Shown here piece after piece: positions 7,681 to 23,864 of a stretch of DNA of 64,000 nt. Under the pieces are notes generated by a model that was given only the letters and a program-made list of their open reading frames with translations, ran no database searches and was not told where the DNA came from. The position numbers and the translations under genes were made by a program. Location: NCBI GenBank assembly GCA_963841435.1, contig CAWJCS010000005.1, positions 160,001 to 224,000 on the forward strand. Direction: 5' to 3'. This stretch comes from an uncultured delta proteobacterium (GTDB lineage: Bacteria > Myxococcota_A > Polyangia > Polyangiales > Polyangiaceae). The number at the start of each line of letters is the position of its first letter. Position 1 is the stretch's first letter.

Positions 7681-7710
7681 TTGACTGAAATTACGCGGAC
7701 TTGCTATCTT
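7681..7710 (+). promoter_or_regulatory. Sigma70-type promoter of FHA-GGDEF gene
   Basis: TTGACT (7681-7686), 18 nt spacer, extended -10 TGcTATCTT (7705-7710), in an AT-rich patch. Confidence 0.6.
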
Positions 7711-7794: not shown

Positions 7795-8688
7795 GTGAGC
7801 GAAAACGACGAGAAGACACGCGTCACGCAGGTGGTGCAGGCCCCGCCGCCCGATCAGCCGGCTGGAAACGACTGCGTCGTCGTGATTTACGCCGCGGAGG
7901 CGGGTCTGCTCGGCAAGCGTTTCGTGCTCGACAAGAGCCCGCTGCGCGTGGGCCGTGGGGGTGACAACGCCATCGTGCTCGACGGCGACTCGGTGTCACG
8001 GCGGCACGCGCACTTCGAGCGGCGGGGCGGCGCGTGGCACATCGTCGACAACGGTTCCACGAACGGTACGTTCCTGAACGAGGAACAGGTGCGGGGCGAA
8101 GCGCCGCTCGCCAACGGCGATCGCGTGAAAATCGGCCCGAGCATCCTCAAGTACCTGTCGGGGCTCGATGCCGAGGCAAAGTACCACGAAGAGATCTATC
8201 GCATGACGATCGTGGATGGCCTCACGCAGATCCACAACAAGCGCTACCTCTTCGAGGCCCTCGACCGCGAGCTCATCCGCGCGCGTCGCTACGATCGCCA
8301 GCTCTCTCTTCTGATCTTCGACATCGACTACTTCAAGAACATCAACGATCAGTACGGACACCTCGCAGGCGACCACGTGCTCCGGGAGCTCGCGCGCATC
8401 GTGCAGGAACGCATCCGACGCGACGAGGTGTTCGCCCGCTACGGCGGCGAGGAGTTCGTGGTCGTGCTACCGGAAACGCCCTTGCCGGGCGGCGTGGCGC
8501 TTGCGGAAAATGTGCGCGCACGCGTCGAAACGCACGGCTTCGCATTCCAGGGGGAACGCATCCCCGTGACGATTAGCGTCGGCTGCGCCATGCTCGGTGA
8601 CGAGAAGACCGCAGTCGAGCTCATCCAGCGTGCCGACGACAAGCTCTACGAAGCCAAACGCGGCGGACGCAACCGCGTCTGCTCCTAG
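7795..8688 (+). CDS. FHA-domain diguanylate cyclase
   Basis: FHA motifs VGR, SVSRRHA, D.GSTNGT; GGDEF domain DGLT..NKR, DIDYFK.IND.YGH..GD, ARYGGEEF. Confidence 0.96.
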   Translation: MSENDEKTRVTQVVQAPPPDQPAGNDCVVVIYAAEAGLLGKRFVLDKSPLRVGRGGDNAIVLDGDSVSRRHAHFERRGGAWHIVDNGSTNGTFLNEEQVRGEAPLANGDRVKIGPSILKYLSGLDAEAKYHEEIYRMTIVDGLTQIHNKRYLFEALDRELIRARRYDRQLSLLIFDIDYFKNINDQYGHLAGDHVLRELARIVQERIRRDEVFARYGGEEFVVVLPETPLPGGVALAENVRARVETHGFAFQGERIPVTISVGCAMLGDEKTAVELIQRADDKLYEAKRGGRNRVCS

Positions 8689-8695
8689 CGCGCCC

Positions 8696-10003
8696 GTGCC
8701 CACCCCGGCCCCAGAAGGGCGCGGCCAGGAGCCGCCGCTCGTCGTCACGCGCCCGCCCGGTCAGCACTCGCGCAGCTTCATGGTGCGGCACGCTCACGCC
8801 ACGGCCCCGATGGGCCCGGGGGGCCATCCGAGCACCATCGTCTACGCCACGGCCGAGGGCGCCAACGTCACCTGCGTCAACGGCAACCGCTACGTCAATC
8901 TCGCGGGCGGATTCGGGGCCGCGCTCGTGGGCCACCGCCACCCGAGCGTGCTCCGCGCCATCGAGCTCCAATCCGCGCGCCTGTTGCACGCGCTCGGCGA
9001 CCTCTACCCCTCGGACGCGAAAGTGGGCCTCGTCGAGCGGCTTTCCAGGCTTCACCCCAGCGAGGGCGCCCAGGTGATCCTCGGTCAGTCCGGCTCGGAC
9101 GCCGTCACGATCGCGCTGAAGACGGCCTGCCTCGCGACGGGCCGTCCCGGGGTCGTGGCGTTCGGCGAGGGGTATCACGGGCTCGGCTACGGGCCGCTCG
9201 CGGTCTCGGGCTTTCGGCCGAGCTATCGCGAGCCCTTCCGCGAGCAGCTGAACGCCCACGTTTGGTTCGTGCCCTACCCCGCGACGGACGAAGAGCTCGG
9301 ACCGGCGCTCGAAGCGGTGCGCACGGCGCTCGCCACGGGAACGGTCGGCGCGATCCTCGTCGAGCCCGTGCTCGGCCGCGGCGGTGTGATCGAGCCACCT
9401 GCGGCGTTTCTGCCGCAGCTCTTGGAGCTCGCGCGTGAAACAGGGGCGCTGTTCGTGACCGACGAGATCTGGACCGGCCTCGGACGGGCGGGAAGCCTTT
9501 TGGCGGCCGGTGTCGTGCCGGATCTCGTTTGCCTCGGCAAGGGCCTGGGCGGCGGCTTGCCGATCAGCGCGGTGCTCGGCCGGCGCGACGTGATGGCGGC
9601 ATGGCGGCGCCCCGACGAGGTCGTGCACACCTCGACGTTCGCGGGTGCGCCGCTAGCGGCGGCGGCCGCGCTCGCGACGCTCGACGTGCTCAGCCGCGCG
9701 GGTTTGCCCGAGCGCGCGGCGCGGGTCGGGGCGACCTTTCGAGACGGGCTCACGAGCGCTCTCGCCCCATTTCCGGACGTCCGCGTGCGGGGCCGCGGGC
9801 TCATGCTGGGCGTCGAGATCGAGGGGCGGCCGGGCGCCGCGAGGCGCGCCCTAGTTTCGCTGCTCGAGCGCGGCTTCCTCGCGACGACCGGCGGCGCGAC
9901 GCGCGAGACGCTCGTCTTCACGCCACCGCTGACGATTGCGGAAGCTTTGCTAGCCCTCGCGACGACGGCCGTGCGAGAAGCCGTGCAGGAAGCCATTCGA
10001 TGA
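8696..10003 (+). CDS. Class III PLP aminotransferase (GabT/omega-transaminase-like)
   Basis: GNRYVNLAGGFG..VGH, QSGSDA, YHG, EPVLGRGG, DEIWTGLGR.G, PDLVCLGKGLGGG (PLP Lys), HTSTFAG. Start at GTG 8696 is inferred. Confidence 0.92.
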   Translation: MPTPAPEGRGQEPPLVVTRPPGQHSRSFMVRHAHATAPMGPGGHPSTIVYATAEGANVTCVNGNRYVNLAGGFGAALVGHRHPSVLRAIELQSARLLHALGDLYPSDAKVGLVERLSRLHPSEGAQVILGQSGSDAVTIALKTACLATGRPGVVAFGEGYHGLGYGPLAVSGFRPSYREPFREQLNAHVWFVPYPATDEELGPALEAVRTALATGTVGAILVEPVLGRGGVIEPPAAFLPQLLELARETGALFVTDEIWTGLGRAGSLLAAGVVPDLVCLGKGLGGGLPISAVLGRRDVMAAWRRPDEVVHTSTFAGAPLAAAAALATLDVLSRAGLPERAARVGATFRDGLTSALAPFPDVRVRGRGLMLGVEIEGRPGAARRALVSLLERGFLATTGGATRETLVFTPPLTIAEALLALATTAVREAVQEAIR

Positions 10004-11106
10004 CGTTCACCGTGGAGTCGGACAACCTGCACCGGCGCGTACGTCGCTTCGCGCGCGGCGAGGGCACTGACGACTTCGATACGCTCGCGCTCGAGATTGC
10101 GCGCTACCAGGCGCGACGCTCGCCGCGCTACGCGAAGCTCGTCGCGAGCCGCGGCTCGACGCTCGACGCGGCATCGAGCATCGTCGCGGTCCCCTCCGAT
10201 GCTTTCCGGCTCGCGCGAGTCGCCGTTCACCCCGAGTCCGAGGACATGGCCCGTTTCGAGACGAGCGGCACGACGGGCAGCGCGAGGGGCGTCCACGCGT
10301 TTCGCTCGCTCGAGACCTACCGCGAGCTCGCTCTCGCCTACGGCGAGCAGGCACTGCTCGGCGCGCGACGCGGGCCACGCGTCGTCGTCAGCCTCTCGCC
10401 CGCGCCGAGCGTTCCGCAGCGCTCGTCGCTCGGCTTCATGGCGGAGCTGTTCCAGGCTCGCTGGGACGGGCGCTCGCTCGGCGGGGGCCCATTCGCCGCG
10501 CGCGCCGCGGAGCGCTGGCTCGCGGGGCCGGGTGGCATCGACGTGTCCGGCCTCGAGCTGGCGTGTCTCGTCGCCGAACGCCGCCGCGAGCCGTTGCTCG
10601 TGCTCGCGACGGCCTTCGCACTGGTGGCGTTGCTCGACGCGCTCGGCGGTCGCGTGATCCCGGCGCCATCGGACAGCACCATCATGATGACGGGCGGCTT
10701 CAAGGGTCGCTCGCGCGAGGTGGTGCGCGCCGACCTGCGCCGCTCCGTCGCGCAGGCCTTCGGCGTGTCCGAAGCACACGTGGTCACCGAGTACGGCATG
10801 ACGGAGCTCACGAGCCAGCTCTACGAGGGCACGCTGCCCGGAGCGCGACTCGCGGGGGATTCCGACGTGCTTTTGCCGCCACCGTGGCTCCGCGTCGAGC
10901 CCGTCGACCCCGCGACGCTCGAGCCGGTGGCACCCGGCTCGGTCGGCATCGCGCGCTTCGTCGATCTCGGCAACGTGGACTCGGCCGTCGCGGTCCAGAC
11001 CGACGACCTGGTGCGAAACGCAGGGGTGGGCATCGAGCTCTTCGGCCGGCGCCCCGGCGCGCCGGCACGCGGCTGCTCGCTTGCGCTGGAGGCGCTCGTC
11101 GGGTGA
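10000..11106 (+). CDS. LuxE-like acyl-protein synthetase
   Basis: FETSGTTG loop, SSL.FM, TGGFKGR, EYGMTELTSQLY, PPW, DLGNVDS..AVQTDD, C-terminal GR....RGCSL (acyl-accepting Cys); ATGA overlap. Confidence 0.9.
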   Translation: MTFTVESDNLHRRVRRFARGEGTDDFDTLALEIARYQARRSPRYAKLVASRGSTLDAASSIVAVPSDAFRLARVAVHPESEDMARFETSGTTGSARGVHAFRSLETYRELALAYGEQALLGARRGPRVVVSLSPAPSVPQRSSLGFMAELFQARWDGRSLGGGPFAARAAERWLAGPGGIDVSGLELACLVAERRREPLLVLATAFALVALLDALGGRVIPAPSDSTIMMTGGFKGRSREVVRADLRRSVAQAFGVSEAHVVTEYGMTELTSQLYEGTLPGARLAGDSDVLLPPPWLRVEPVDPATLEPVAPGSVGIARFVDLGNVDSAVAVQTDDLVRNAGVGIELFGRRPGAPARGCSLALEALVG

Positions 11107-12146
11107 GCGCGCGCGCAGAGGCACGGCGCCGTGTCGAACGTCTCGTCGAGGCCGCTCGGCTGATCGCAACACCCGGGAGCGGCCTCGGGCAACGCGCCCG
11201 GCGCGAGCTTCCGGAAACGACGGGGCTTTCCGCCCAGGGCGTCGAGCTTGCGCTCACCGAGTGCCTCGAGAGCGAGCCGACCGAGCAGGAGCTCGACGAG
11301 CTCGTCGGCGCGGCGGCCCCGGCGCGACGCGCGCACGTGCTCTTGCCCGCGAACGTTTTCGTTGCCGCACACCGGGCCATCGCGCTCGCGCTCGCGGCGT
11401 CACCGGAAGTGTTCGTGCGACCTTCGCGTCGGGAGCCGTGCTTCGCGCGTCTACTCGCCGAGGGCGCCCCCGGATTGTTCCAAATCGTGGACAACCTCAA
11501 GCCAGAGCCCGGCGACACGCTGCATGCCTACGGGACCGAGCAGACTCTCGAAAGCGTTCGCCGGGAGCTTGTTCTGGGCGTCCACCTCGAGGCGCACGGA
11601 CCCGGGCACGGCGTCGCCGTGGTCGAGCAGGAGCGCGCCACGCTCGGCGCCGCACGAGCCATTGCTCGTGACATCGTGCCGTTCGACCAGCGCGGCTGCC
11701 TGAGCCCACGCGTCGCGCTGTTCGTCGGTACCGTGGATGCCGCGCGTACGTTCGCCCAGGCCGTTGCCGGTGCGCTCGCCGAGCTCGAGGCGCGCGTTCC
11801 ACTCGGGCGGCTCGACGCCGAAGAGCGCGCCGAAATCGCGCGTTTTCGCGACACGTTCGCCTACGCGGGCGAGCTTTTTCCGGCGGGCTCGGGCTGGGTC
11901 GCCATCGGGCCCGAGCGCGCGCCCCGTGTCGCACCGGACGGACGCAATCTGTTGATCCTACCGAGCGCCGACCCCGTCCGAACCCTCGCTGGCTCGGCGC
12001 CCGAAGTGACGGCGCTCGGTCTCGCCGCCGGACAGAAGCACGAGGCCTCGCTCGCGGCGACGCTACCCCGCGCGCGATACTCCGCGCTCGGCGCGATGCA
12101 GCGGCCGCGCTTCGACGGACCCGCCGACCGGCGCGGCATGGCCTGA
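11103..12146 (+). CDS. LuxC-like acyl-CoA/acyl-protein reductase (compact ALDH fold)
   Basis: LPANVF, AYG...T, HGPGHG, DIVPFDQRGCLSP (catalytic Cys), LGAMQRP..D..D; GTGA overlap. Confidence 0.85.
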   Translation: MSARAEARRRVERLVEAARLIATPGSGLGQRARRELPETTGLSAQGVELALTECLESEPTEQELDELVGAAAPARRAHVLLPANVFVAAHRAIALALAASPEVFVRPSRREPCFARLLAEGAPGLFQIVDNLKPEPGDTLHAYGTEQTLESVRRELVLGVHLEAHGPGHGVAVVEQERATLGAARAIARDIVPFDQRGCLSPRVALFVGTVDAARTFAQAVAGALAELEARVPLGRLDAEERAEIARFRDTFAYAGELFPAGSGWVAIGPERAPRVAPDGRNLLILPSADPVRTLAGSAPEVTALGLAAGQKHEASLAATLPRARYSALGAMQRPRFDGPADRRGMA

Positions 12147-12716: not shown

Positions 12717-14591
12717 CTAGTCGACCAGCGGTAGCCGGCGCGGGGACGCCTGCCGGTCGGCGCGGACGACGACGCTGAGCGGACCGTCAGGAAGCGGCAG
12801 ATTCTGGTTCTTCGCGTACACGGGGTGGCGGCCGCGCGTCTTGAACCATTCGGCGACCGTCGCAGTGCGCTTCATGCTCTCGACGATCTGACGGAAGCCG
12901 ACGCCGGTGTTGTAGGCGCAGAACGAGATCTCGCCGAGCTGTGTGCCGTAAGGAATGATGCACATCTCGGTGCGACGAAAGTCGTAGTTGTAGAGATCCT
13001 GGAACCACATGCCCGCCACGAACAAGAATCGCCATTCGAACTCGCCGGCGTCGCCCTCGCTCGCGCCCACGCGGTCTCCACTGGCTCCCATCTGGCTCGT
13101 TGCCTGGCGGAAGAGCTCGTAAAACGAGTAGCCCTTCGGGGCGCGCTCGGCGCGGTAGTTCCGGAGCAGCGAGAGTCCCATCGCCGTGAGCGTCGCCGGG
13201 CGGGAGAGCGCCAGATCCGCAACGGACTGCATGTCGGCGAGCACCGCCTCGATGTCGATGATCTCGGCGAGCGGCACCATTTGCTTGGTGCGCTTGTTGA
13301 CGAGCAGCACCGTGCCGATGCCGCAGTTCGGGTGACAGCCGCAGTTGAGCGCGCCAAATTGCGCGTCCTTGCCGAGCAAGAGATCCACCACGTCGCTCAG
13401 CGAGTTCATGGCCGAGAGCGGGAACCAGTCACGGTGGGGCTCAGTGGCGCCGAGCTGGCGGTGCACGTCCCAGGCGAGGTGCGAGAGCGTGTAGCGCTCT
13501 GCGAGGCGCCGCTCGTCCTCGATGTTCTCGTCGCGACCGGTGAAGCTCACGGGCTGAAACGAGACGACCGTGATCTTGTCGGCGTTGTCGATTGCGAAGC
13601 GCACGACGGGGCCGACCTGGGCGTCGTTGACGCCGTTGACGACGGTCACGACGAGCACGACGTCGATCCCCGCGGCGGCGAGGTTCTCGATCGCGCGGAG
13701 CTTCACGTCGAACAAGTTGCCCACCTTGCGATGCGAGTTCGCTTCGTTCGTGACGCCATCGAACTGCAGGTAGCAGAGCCTGAGTCCGGCCTCTCGCACC
13801 GCATGGCAGAGCTCCGGCTCCTGCGCGAAGCGAATGCCGTTCGTCGCGCACTGCACCGAGAAGTAGCCAATCTTTCTGGCATGGGCGATGGCGCGGAGAA
13901 AGTGCGGGCTGAGCGTCGGCTCGCCACCCGAAAACTGCACGCTGAGCTGCCGGCGCGGCTTCACGGACAGCGAGTCGTCGAGGATCTGCTGCACGTCCGC
14001 CCACTCGAGCTCGTGGACGAAGCCGACCTGATTCGCGTCCATGAAGCACGGGTCACACATCATGTTGCAGCGGTTCGTGAGGTCGACCGTGAGCACGGCA
14101 CCGCGCCCGTACTTGATCGACGAGGTGCCGTGCTTGCGGAGCGGCGTCGGCGGCGACTTCTGGTCACGCCCCGGAAACAAGCGCTCGATGCGGGACAGGA
14201 ATGCCGGGTCGATACTGATCACGTCCTCGAAGGCGCCGTGCTTGGCACACTCCTTCTGCATCACGACGGCACCGCCCTTTTCCACGATGTGAGCGCGGAT
14301 TTCGCCCGGGTGCTCGTGCAGAAAGGAGGACATCTCCATGGCGCCGGACAGCACCGCCGCCCGCGCCTCGCGCACGCATACCGGACAGAGCGAGTCGGTC
14401 TGCCGCGGCCAGCCGAGTGGCGGAAATGACTTTTGACGCCGTTTGGAAAGCGGCGCCGCCGCCCAGGGGGGCTTCAAGGTCTGCCCCGGAAGTCGCTCGC
14501 CGAGCGACATCACGAGCGGCCAGGCAAGGTTGGCGGCCCGGCCGACGAGCTTCTCGGTTCCGATTCTCAGGGCCCGGAGCGAAGCTGGCAT
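12717..14591 (-). CDS. Radical SAM enzyme, tetraether synthase (Tes/GDGT-MAS, MJ0619) family homologue
   Basis: TDSLCPVC...KECAKHG, radical SAM CNMMCDPC, QFSGGEPT, YLQFDG, CGCHPNCG, GMWFQDLYNYD.RR..C.I.Y.....ISFCAYN. Confidence 0.85.
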   Translation of the reverse strand: MPASLRALRIGTEKLVGRAANLAWPLVMSLGERLPGQTLKPPWAAAPLSKRRQKSFPPLGWPRQTDSLCPVCVREARAAVLSGAMEMSSFLHEHPGEIRAHIVEKGGAVVMQKECAKHGAFEDVISIDPAFLSRIERLFPGRDQKSPPTPLRKHGTSSIKYGRGAVLTVDLTNRCNMMCDPCFMDANQVGFVHELEWADVQQILDDSLSVKPRRQLSVQFSGGEPTLSPHFLRAIAHARKIGYFSVQCATNGIRFAQEPELCHAVREAGLRLCYLQFDGVTNEANSHRKVGNLFDVKLRAIENLAAAGIDVVLVVTVVNGVNDAQVGPVVRFAIDNADKITVVSFQPVSFTGRDENIEDERRLAERYTLSHLAWDVHRQLGATEPHRDWFPLSAMNSLSDVVDLLLGKDAQFGALNCGCHPNCGIGTVLLVNKRTKQMVPLAEIIDIEAVLADMQSVADLALSRPATLTAMGLSLLRNYRAERAPKGYSFYELFRQATSQMGASGDRVGASEGDAGEFEWRFLFVAGMWFQDLYNYDFRRTEMCIIPYGTQLGEISFCAYNTGVGFRQIVESMKRTATVAEWFKTRGRHPVYAKNQNLPLPDGPLSVVVRADRQASPRRLPLVD

Positions 14592-22027: not shown

Positions 22028-22747
22028 TTACACCTTCAGGCTGAAGGGCGTGAACTTCGTGTCGCGGTCGAAATAGTCCTCGTGCTCGGCGCGTTTGAAG
22101 AACGCCACGACGCGGTAGGTGAGCGGCGTCGCAACGACCTCCCACCCGACCTTGATCAGGTAGTTTGCCAGCATCACGCGCACGAGCAGGTCGTTGGGCA
22201 TCCAGCCTTCACCGTAGAAAGCCAGGGGATAGAAGATCACGGTGTCAACGGCCTCGCCGGCGATCGTCGAGCCGATCGTGCGCGAGAAAAGCCAGCGGCC
22301 GCCCGTGAGCACCTTCATCTTGGCGAGCGTGTAGGAGTTGACGAACTCGCCACAGAAGTAGGCGATGAGCGAGCCGAGCGCGACGCGCCACGTGGCGCCG
22401 AACGCCCATTCGAGCTGGGCTTGGTCGGTGAACTGGTCCGCGGGCGGCAGGCCCACGACGACGAAGCTCTGAAACGCCGCGAACGCGAGCGCCGCGAAGC
22501 CCGCCCACACGACGCGCCGCGAGCGCGCGTAACCGTAGACCTCGGTGAGCACGTCGCCGAACAGGTACGCGATGGGAAAGAATAGATTCCCCGCGCCGAA
22601 CGCGAAGAGCTCCTTCCCGTCCAAGGCGACGTGCGTGATCTTGCGCACGCCGATCAGGTTGCTGCACAAGAGCACGCAAACGAACGCGGCCATGACTAGG
22701 TCGTAGTAGCGGTAGCGGCGCGCCGGACGGTGCGCGTCGTCAGCCAT
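22028..22747 (-). CDS. yhhQ: Queuosine precursor transporter (YhhQ/Vut_1)
   Basis: LLCSN, FPIAYLFGDVLTEVYG, RVALGSLIAY, NSY.LAKMK, RTIGST..GE.VDT. Confidence 0.93.
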   Translation of the reverse strand: MADDAHRPARRYRYYDLVMAAFVCVLLCSNLIGVRKITHVALDGKELFAFGAGNLFFPIAYLFGDVLTEVYGYARSRRVVWAGFAALAFAAFQSFVVVGLPPADQFTDQAQLEWAFGATWRVALGSLIAYFCGEFVNSYTLAKMKVLTGGRWLFSRTIGSTIAGEAVDTVIFYPLAFYGEGWMPNDLLVRVMLANYLIKVGWEVVATPLTYRVVAFFKRAEHEDYFDRDTKFTPFSLKV

Positions 22748-23864
22748 TCCACTTGCCCATCGCGGGGCTTTCGAGCGCTTTCGGACGCTTCTCGCCGCGC
22801 GCCACTCGGTCGACGAGCTCGTCGACGCACGCATAGAGCATGTCGTTGCTCGTCGGCACGTCCGCGGGGAAGGCGCGACCGAACTCGCCCGAGCGCTCGA
22901 GAAACGCGCCGATCGGCTCGGCCTCGAAGCGACGCGACCAGGCGCCCACGCCGAGCGCTTCGAGATAACGTGCGTTCAGCTCCTGCTCGTACTGGCCGGA
23001 TACCGGAATCGACAGCGTGGGGATCCCGAGGCTAACCGCCTCGGCGAGCAGCGAAAATCCTCCGCCCGCGATCACGGCGCGCGCGCCCGTGAGATCGTCG
23101 ACGAAGCGCTCCTCCGAGAACGGGCACAAGGTCACGTTCCCCTCGCTGCCCTCGCGACCGAGCCCGTAGACGCGGAAACGAAAGGGCAGTCGCTTGAGCG
23201 TCGGCACGAGCGCCTGATTGGTGGTCTGCGTCTGGTAGACGAGCACGTGGTCGCGCGGCTGCCAGGTGCGGCCGAGGAGCTCCGGACGCAGGATGGGAGG
23301 AATGAGCGTCGTGTACTTCTTGCGAACCGGCGGAAAGAAGAAGCTCGTGACGAGGTAGTGGTACGCCTTCGGCACCTTGATGCGCACGGCGAGGCGCGCC
23401 AGCTCGAAATCGAACCCCTTGGCGCGCACCACGGGGTCGTCGTGGCGACAGCGATTGATGATCTGCATGTTGTCGATGCTGATCACGGGCAGGCCGTGCC
23501 GCTTGGCGTAGAGCGCCGCCCACGACTCGAAGTCGCTGATGACGAGCTCGGGTGAAAACCCGGACTCTGCGACCTTGCGGTAGACCCCGACGTTCTTTCT
23601 GATGCTGCGCGGCGCGCGCTCGAGGTTGAAGAGCACGCTCTGCGTGCGGTCGAGCGAGTTGCCGAAGTAGCTCAGCACGAGGCCGTGGATCTCCTCGAGC
23701 GAGACGTTCTCGAAGGCAGCAAGCTTCTTCCCGAGAAACGCATGGGCCCTGCCGGACACCACGACGCGGATCTGGTGCCCGGCGCGCGCCAAGTGCTCCA
23801 GCACGACCAGGCTGCGAGTCGCGTGACCCATGCCCTCGCCGACGACGCCGTAGAGGATTTGCAC
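22740..23864 (-). CDS. MJ1255/VC2487-family GT-B glycosyltransferase
   Basis: ILYGVVGEGMGHATRS, ISDFE, ISIDN, GGFSLLAEA, GQYEQ.LNA. Confidence 0.9.
   Translation of the reverse strand: MQILYGVVGEGMGHATRSLVVLEHLARAGHQIRVVVSGRAHAFLGKKLAAFENVSLEEIHGLVLSYFGNSLDRTQSVLFNLERAPRSIRKNVGVYRKVAESGFSPELVISDFESWAALYAKRHGLPVISIDNMQIINRCRHDDPVVRAKGFDFELARLAVRIKVPKAYHYLVTSFFFPPVRKKYTTLIPPILRPELLGRTWQPRDHVLVYQTQTTNQALVPTLKRLPFRFRVYGLGREGSEGNVTLCPFSEERFVDDLTGARAVIAGGGFSLLAEAVSLGIPTLSIPVSGQYEQELNARYLEALGVGAWSRRFEAEPIGAFLERSGEFGRAFPADVPTSNDMLYACVDELVDRVARGEKRPKALESPAMGKWNG

Follow-up and report, generated by a model that had tools for sequence, protein, structure and literature searches.

An aminotransferase-LuxE-LuxC gene trio conserved in Myxococcota as a probable nitrile-free route to the queuosine precursor preQ1

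What does a bacterium without luciferase do with a LuxE-like and a LuxC-like protein, and what is the task of the class III aminotransferase encoded directly in front of them? This question is raised by three genes in a stretch of 64,000 nucleotides from an uncultured Polyangiaceae bacterium (assembly GCA_963841435.1, contig CAWJCS010000005.1, positions 160,001 to 224,000), which as a whole is called the window. The three genes, called the trio, encode the aminotransferase, a carboxylate-activating enzyme, and a thioester reductase (Table 1). In queuosine synthesis, 7-carboxy-7-deazaguanine (CDG) is the product of QueE, and 7-aminomethyl-7-deazaguanine (preQ1) is the base that Tgt inserts into tRNA toward queuosine. 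We propose, at a probability of about 0.6, that the trio provides a nitrile-free route from CDG via 7-formyl-7-deazaguanine to preQ1 that is independent of QueC and QueF. The majority of Myxococcota (311 of the 401 genomes sampled) and the metagenome relatives of the trio would then probably use it to make preQ1 without QueC, QueF, and preQ0. The proposal is based on the families and folds of the enzymes, on conserved catalytic residues, on the conservation of the trio itself, and on an association with queuosine genes that is phyletic and in rare cases physical.

In the window, which has a G+C content of 69.7%, the trio consists of three stop-free frames on the forward strand. The first-pass annotation of this DNA had described the genes as joined by 4-bp overlaps, and both overlaps can be read from the sequence (ATGA at 10000-10003 and GTGA at 11103-11106). 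The motifs that it had named are all found as well, LGKG in the aminotransferase, RGCSL in the LuxE-like protein, and QRGCLSP in the LuxC-like protein. Its statement that luxA, luxB, and luxD are missing is supported: the luciferase and LuxD families are absent among the 42 open reading frames scanned with Pfam, which were picked by a GC3 rule and left a few stretches of the window outside the scan. The GTG at 8696 is a plausible start of the aminotransferase, as residue 1 aligns in the loci L002, L003, and L007; with the alternative GTG at 8597 as start, the gene would extend into its upstream neighbour (labels beginning with L, G, and f denote the loci, genomes, and families compared, G000 being the window's genome).

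The trio is widely conserved. In 100 related loci, tblastn detected LuxE in all, LuxC in 90, and the aminotransferase in 87, and most of the loci agree in gene order and strand, so that the neighbourhood survey by which the first-pass annotation had suggested checking its cascade from acid via aldehyde to amine leaves this cascade standing. Within the family and order of the window, 29 loci were compared with 1.5 kb flanks, and the aminotransferase precedes the LuxE-like gene in 24 of them and LuxC follows it in 25. Across the phylum the aminotransferase adjoins in 17 of 20 loci, the three exceptions all belonging to family f20, and 80 metagenome loci, many of them short, contain the aminotransferase in 60 and LuxC in 48 cases. 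In genome G370 the aminotransferase is encoded 1.4 kb upstream with one gene between. The arrangement of the trio is not due to chance. A scan of genome contigs aimed at other phyla returned Polyangiaceae-type loci only. At a threshold of E <= 1e-10 the LuxE-like gene is present in 320 of the 401 Myxococcota genomes that form our phylum sample, nearly always as one copy per genome, and the neighbours of the trio include housekeeping genes such as rpoA-rplQ, a murein ligase gene, and folK. The single copy, the near-universal spread, and these neighbours fit a core function.

An alternative arrangement on one strand, in the order Cys/Met-metabolism enzyme dependent on pyridoxal phosphate (PLP), CoA-binding protein, LuxE, LuxC, aminotransferase, and GFO/IDH/MocA oxidoreductase, was seen at five loci (L173, L180, L204, L207, L217). 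The Cys/Met PLP enzyme is encoded at all five, the CoA-binding protein at L204 and L217, and the oxidoreductase at L204, L207, and L217. LuxC was confirmed in L173, L180, L204, and L207, and in L180 two genes on the minus strand split LuxE from LuxC.

A hint at the substrate comes from the queuosine genes. The window's genome, which is 95% complete, encodes a QueD equivalog, a QueE-like radical SAM protein, Tgt with QueA adjoining, and QueG, and neither QueC nor QueF was found in it. The same picture is given by six named genomes, namely the complete genomes of Sorangium cellulosum So ce56, Sorangium sp. So ce1099, and Minicystis rosea DSM 24000, two Polyangium drafts, and a metagenome-assembled Nannocystis genome. 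All six encode Tgt and a QueE-like protein, that of So ce56 scoring 272.5 bits to TIGR04349, and none of the six has a QueC above the cut-off or any QueF match. In the phylum sample, QueC is present in 70 of the 401 genomes, and cross-tabulation by script gave 311 genomes with only the LuxE-like gene, 61 with only QueC, 9 with both, and 20 with neither. A strong QueF match (>= 106 bits) was obtained in 51 genomes, every one of which has QueC and none of which has the LuxE-like gene. Switches are also seen within families. In family f6, genome G285 has adjacent QueC and QueF genes and no LuxE, and G120 and G365 have LuxE; in family f35, G138 shows the same departure from the other members.

At least 367 of the 401 genomes have a QueE-like gene. 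No QueE-like match was obtained in the other 34, and the LuxE-like gene is present in 9 of the 20 listed among these. Relatives of the QueE-like protein of the window's genome are encoded next to QueC in the QueC-positive genomes G241, G076, G121, and G048, which supports their identity as genuine QueE. Taking these counts and the cross-tabulation together, about three quarters of the sampled phylum have a CDG synthase and preQ1-consuming enzymes without the QueC and QueF that would connect them, and it is the same genomes that have the trio.

In a few cases the trio is also physically linked to queuosine genes. In the metagenome loci L220 and L210 a queE gene (303 and 305 bits to TIGR04349, cut-off 300) overlaps the start of the aminotransferase and shares its strand with LuxE and LuxC. 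At L191 a REP transposase gene separates the queE gene (281 bits) from the trio. In a FastTree tree of 109 LuxE-like sequences these three loci form one clade (SH-like support of 97) that is nested among the branches of the phylum sample. Thus, the queE-linked loci belong to the same LuxE-like family and represent a single event. At the other end of the trio, eight Sorangium genomes and Minicystis rosea encode a QueD equivalog at a distance of 2 kb downstream from LuxC, and a GAF/PtsP-N gene separates the two. A side observation on L220 and L210 is a gene of an ICMT/PEMT-like membrane methyltransferase family that in both separates the LuxE-like gene from the aminotransferase.

However, there are several observations that weigh against an assignment of the trio to preQ1 synthesis. 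The linkage is rare: queE adjoins the trio in only 3 of 80 metagenome loci and queD is near it in only 9 of 80 genome loci, one clade in each case, and neither is linked to it in the 20 loci of the phylum sample. Neither the window nor 76 metagenome loci gave a match to a preQ1 riboswitch or any other Rfam family at the gathering score. The QueE-like protein of the window's genome stays below every NCBIfam QueE cut-off, with 92 bits at best. QueC and the LuxE-like gene occur together in nine genomes and are both missing from 20; the QueC matches of two of the nine are partial and below the cut-off, and several of the 20 are members of families in which the trio is otherwise present. The related genomes in the cross-tabulation are not independent, and the two-by-two table overstates the evidence. 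Where the aminotransferase is unlinked, in f20 and G230, a protein of 44-52% identity is encoded elsewhere in the genome, and tblastn detected no que genes beside it. In addition, 14 LuxE-positive genomes encode QueF-like proteins that reach 73-82 bits to TIGR03139, for which the cut-off is 86.9. Finally, the window contains a gene for a transporter of the Vut_1/YhhQ family at a distance of 10 kb from the trio, by which salvage of preQ1 would be possible in this genome.

Concerning the QueF-like proteins, four of them were aligned to two canonical QueF proteins from QueC-positive genomes, in which the Cys of the CLCP motif is present. The four keep ELKSLK, have an extra N-terminal segment, and do not have this Cys. 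Because the catalytic Cys is missing, they are unlikely to be nitrile reductases. An interpretation of the mid-scoring QueF matches as FolE-like proteins was rejected; they are QueF-like proteins without the catalytic Cys.

In a rival reading, the trio performs the same chemistry, from acid via aldehyde to primary amine, on another small core metabolite, which would probably be polar or aromatic. Its anticorrelation with QueC and QueF would then result from shared ancestry and from salvage of preQ1. The lack of que genes in most trio neighbourhoods, the failure to find a preQ1 riboswitch, the YhhQ-type transporter, and the recurrent Cys/Met PLP enzyme, CoA-binding, and GFO/IDH/MocA neighbours of the five loci in alternative arrangement all speak for such a function. 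The transporter gene itself was not found in the flanks of any other trio locus. Salvage could explain why QueC and QueF are missing but not why QueD and QueE have been retained, and with another metabolite as substrate the products of QueD and QueE would have no consumer in 311 genomes. The switches within f6 and f35 and the queE-aminotransferase-LuxE-LuxC operons of L210 and L220 would likewise be left without an explanation. We therefore regard another core metabolite as a rather unlikely substrate, although one to be taken seriously.

The enzymes themselves are compatible with the route from CDG to preQ1. The LuxE-like protein matches PF04443 with only its C-terminal ~140 residues (residues 223-364, E-value of 5.6e-10, 39.1 bits with a cut-off of 24.9), and with 24.2 bits it is far from the NCBIfam equivalog cut-off of 550 for LuxE of lux operons (NF052244). 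In a sequence search of the PDB its sole match is LuxE (7xc6_E, E-value of 2.7e-6). The AlphaFold2 model (predicted local distance difference test, pLDDT, of 85.3) is most similar to PaaK1 (2y27_A, E-value of 1.1e-11), BT_0428, ClxA, and NatL2, and LuxE is not among the first 49 chains listed. The closest solved folds of the predicted structure are thus PaaK-type ligases, which adenylate aromatic acids, and this would fit an aromatic acid such as CDG. The motifs SGT, TGG-KG, and MTEL-SQ, which we take to be the ATP motifs, and RGC are invariant in the relatives, and R357, G358, and C359 are so in all 12 aligned relatives and in all 6 of a second alignment. LuxE is acylated on a C-terminal Cys. 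In the proposed route the LuxE-like enzyme would adenylate the 7-carboxylate of CDG with ATP and hold the resulting thioester on its C-terminal Cys359.

The LuxC-like protein matches PF05893 with residues 138-251 only (E-value of 2e-18, 66.9 bits with a cut-off of 21), scores 21.4 bits with an NCBIfam equivalog cut-off of 750 (NF052251), and has no match in the PDB sequence search at an E-value of 0.01. Its AlphaFold model was built on 20 relatives (pLDDT of 95, predicted template modelling score, pTM, of 0.92), and among solved folds it is most similar to LuxC of the P. phosphoreum complex for fatty acid reduction (7xc6_A, E-value of 1.1e-13, TMq of 0.78), followed by aldehyde dehydrogenases. 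In the motif FDQRGCLS all 20 sequences compared share the residues D195, G198, C199, which is the catalytic Cys, and S201. The acyl group could move from the LuxE-like enzyme to Cys199, and reduction with NAD(P)H would give 7-formyl-7-deazaguanine. That the two proteins are partners is suggested by their genes, namely by the 4-bp overlap, the adjacency in 90 of 100 loci, and fusions. Of 58 long relatives most are LuxE-LuxC fusions and one carries PF00202 according to Pfam; fusions to QueD, QueE, or Tgt were not found among them. In a few relatives labelled Chloroflexota (P0165, P0168, P0170-P0172) the fusion partner of the LuxE-like domain is a zinc-type alcohol dehydrogenase and not LuxC, and the downstream chemistry there may be different.

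Because the scores are far below the cut-offs for lux operons and the Pfam matches are partial, the LuxE-like and LuxC-like proteins of the window are distant members of their superfamilies and not orthologs of the bioluminescence enzymes. This bears on the substrate class, as the first-pass annotation had expected a fatty amine, an amino-lipid, or a diamine as the product of its cascade. The cascade as such is well supported by the families, the folds, the conserved Cys residues, the LuxE-LuxC fusions, and the order of the three genes. The expected substrate class is not. The Pfam family names and the LuxC fold of the reductase would be in accordance with the reduction of a long-chain fatty acid to the aldehyde and its amination by the aminotransferase. 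Yet the activating enzyme is nearest to aryl-acid ligases, acyl carrier, acyltransferase, and lipid genes are missing among the conserved neighbours of the trio, and there is no lipid rationale for a single-copy, housekeeping-like spread that is complementary to QueC and QueF and points to CDG. A fatty acid is thus a very improbable substrate.

The aminotransferase is a full-length member of its family (PF00202, Aminotran_3, E-value of 1.5e-83, profile positions 6-402 of 403), and the Lys in CLGKG is, from knowledge of the family, presumably the Schiff-base Lys that binds PLP. It cannot be placed in a named specificity group such as ArgD, GabT, LysJ, BioA, or HemL: none of the 25 best of 70 matching NCBIfam families is above its cut-off, the best score among those listed being 261.5 bits with a cut-off of 552. 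The closest solved sequences are aminotransferases of GABA, acetylornithine, and putrescine, and the models of ArgD, LysJ, and PigE match with E-values of 1e-60 to 1e-78. In the last step of the proposed route this enzyme would convert 7-formyl-7-deazaguanine to preQ1, the amino group being supplied by an amino acid. Acetylornithine, GABA, LysJ, and putrescine aminotransferases as best NCBIfam and PDB matches might suggest that the trio replaces an amino-acid kinase/reductase pair by the logic of ArgB/ArgC/ArgD or LysZ/LysY/LysJ (N-acetylglutamate to N-acetylornithine, aspartate to 2,4-diaminobutyrate, or 2-aminoadipate to lysine), but with every listed equivalog cut-off missed and no arg, lys, or polyamine genes conserved nearby this is hardly credible.

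A displacement of ArgB and ArgC by the trio was considered separately and rejected, as the window's genome has ArgB (256.5 bits, cut-off 151.3) and two ArgC proteins above the cut-off and thus no hole in arginine synthesis. The two argC copies are both full-length and above the TIGR01850 cut-off.

Upstream of the trio, the stop of a gene for an FHA-GGDEF protein and the aminotransferase gene are separated by 7 nucleotides. The sole promoter-like site between 7200 and 12700 is located 5' of the FHA-GGDEF gene at 7681-7710, as a consensus match only, which is a weak kind of evidence. The FHA-GGDEF gene may be co-transcribed with the trio. It is the conserved gene immediately 5' of the aminotransferase in Polyangia-type loci (Sorangium So ce56, Minicystis, and 14 metagenome loci), and it is assigned no part in the proposed chemistry. 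On the 3' side a convergent gene of the TerB family is found. A radical SAM protein with a zinc ribbon of the HMPTM type is also encoded downstream of the trio in the window, and such a gene is again near the trio in the metagenome locus L179.

Table 1. Positions of the trio, of neighbouring genes, and of further genes referred to in the text (window positions unless a locus or genome label is given)
Feature	Location	Strand	Length (residues)	Match
Class III (omega-type) PLP aminotransferase	8696..10003	+	435	PF00202
LuxE-like ATP-dependent carboxylate-activating enzyme	10000..11106	+	368	PF04443
LuxC-like thioester reductase, aldehyde dehydrogenase fold	11103..12146	+	347	PF05893
FHA-GGDEF protein (diguanylate cyclase type)	7795..8688	+		Pfam GGDEF 7.3e-47, FHA 1.3e-20
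Relative of FHA-GGDEF protein	L113:5521-6420			
Relative of FHA-GGDEF protein	L106:5499-6518			
Radical SAM protein, HMPTM-type zinc ribbon	12717-14591	-	624	
Radical SAM protein near trio	L179:1395-3284	+		
Vut_1/YhhQ-family transporter (queuosine-precursor transporter family)	22028-22834	-		PF02592, E 5.6e-49
ICMT/PEMT-like membrane methyltransferase family	L220:6405-6887	+		
ICMT/PEMT-like membrane methyltransferase family	L210:2063-4324	+		
QueF-like protein	L250:2881-3540	-	193-219 (range of the four)	
QueF-like protein	L251:2899-3558	-	193-219 (range of the four)	
QueF-like protein	L252:2899-3480	-	193-219 (range of the four)	
QueF-like protein	L253:2105-2707	-	193-219 (range of the four)	
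argC, first copy	G000:C2:974198-975247			TIGR01850
argC, second copy	G000:C6:1461365-1462402			TIGR01850

In a QueF review from November 2026 the pathway is given as FolE, QueD, QueE, QueC, and QueF, queuosine synthesis is treated as solved with QueF as the only route to preQ1, and 7-formyl-7-deazaguanine appears as a real compound, a hydrolysis product that is released by QueF mutants (PMC13740343). The accessible text of a 2026 preprint on the QueC family names no alternative route (PMC13082051), and a search of the full-text literature, with subscription journals and supplements outside its scope, gave no published link of LuxE, LuxC, or the aminotransferase to preQ1. If the trio makes preQ1, a second route that avoids the nitrile would close a gap that has gone unnoticed across an entire phylum, and preQ0 would no longer be an obligatory intermediate there. 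The scoring of genomes as producers or salvagers of queuosine would have to change. It would also be the first core-metabolic role for LuxE/LuxC-type proteins of non-luminous bacteria, and a natural enzyme set that converts a heteroaromatic acid to an amine. The route is open to a direct test in queC and queF mutants of E. coli and in cultured Sorangium.

Of the known systems, the LuxC-LuxE fatty acid reductase of Photobacterium phosphoreum (7XC6) is the most similar in its parts. Both it and the trio combine an ATP-dependent activating enzyme having a C-terminal Cys with a reductase of the aldehyde dehydrogenase fold having a catalytic Cys, and the genes are adjacent in both and fused in relatives of the trio. 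The trio differs from the lux system in that luxA, luxB, and luxD are missing, in an identity to LuxC of only about 15%, and in a reductase of 347 compared to 477 residues. In addition, it has a conserved aminotransferase partner, a housekeeping distribution, and a substrate that is probably not a fatty acid.

The order of acid, aldehyde, and amine is also that of cascades built from a carboxylic acid reductase and an omega-transaminase. Acid activation, an aldehyde, and class III transamination are common to the trio and to ArgB/ArgC/ArgD, LysZ/LysY/LysJ, and PigE of prodigiosin synthesis (4PPM). In these systems the acid is activated as acyl phosphate or bound to the phosphopantetheine of a carrier protein, whereas the trio would use adenylation and an enzyme thioester. 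Its reductase has the aldehyde dehydrogenase fold and not that of ArgC or of the short-chain dehydrogenases/reductases, and a gene for a carrier protein is missing.

In function the trio can be compared to QueC with QueF, by which CDG is converted to the nitrile preQ0 in an ATP-dependent reaction and then reduced by an NADPH-dependent nitrile reductase. The trio is proposed to start and end at the same compounds, CDG and preQ1. QueC and QueF begin with an activation of the 7-carboxylate by ATP and use NADPH (PMC13740343), and the same is proposed for the trio. The families are unrelated, and in the trio the intermediate would be an aldehyde instead of a nitrile, free preQ0 would not occur, and the nitrogen would come from a PLP-bound amino donor and not from ammonia, with a two-electron instead of a four-electron reduction. 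In accordance with two solutions to the same task, QueC/QueF and the trio are largely mutually exclusive in their distribution, with only 9 of 401 genomes having both QueC and the LuxE-like gene.

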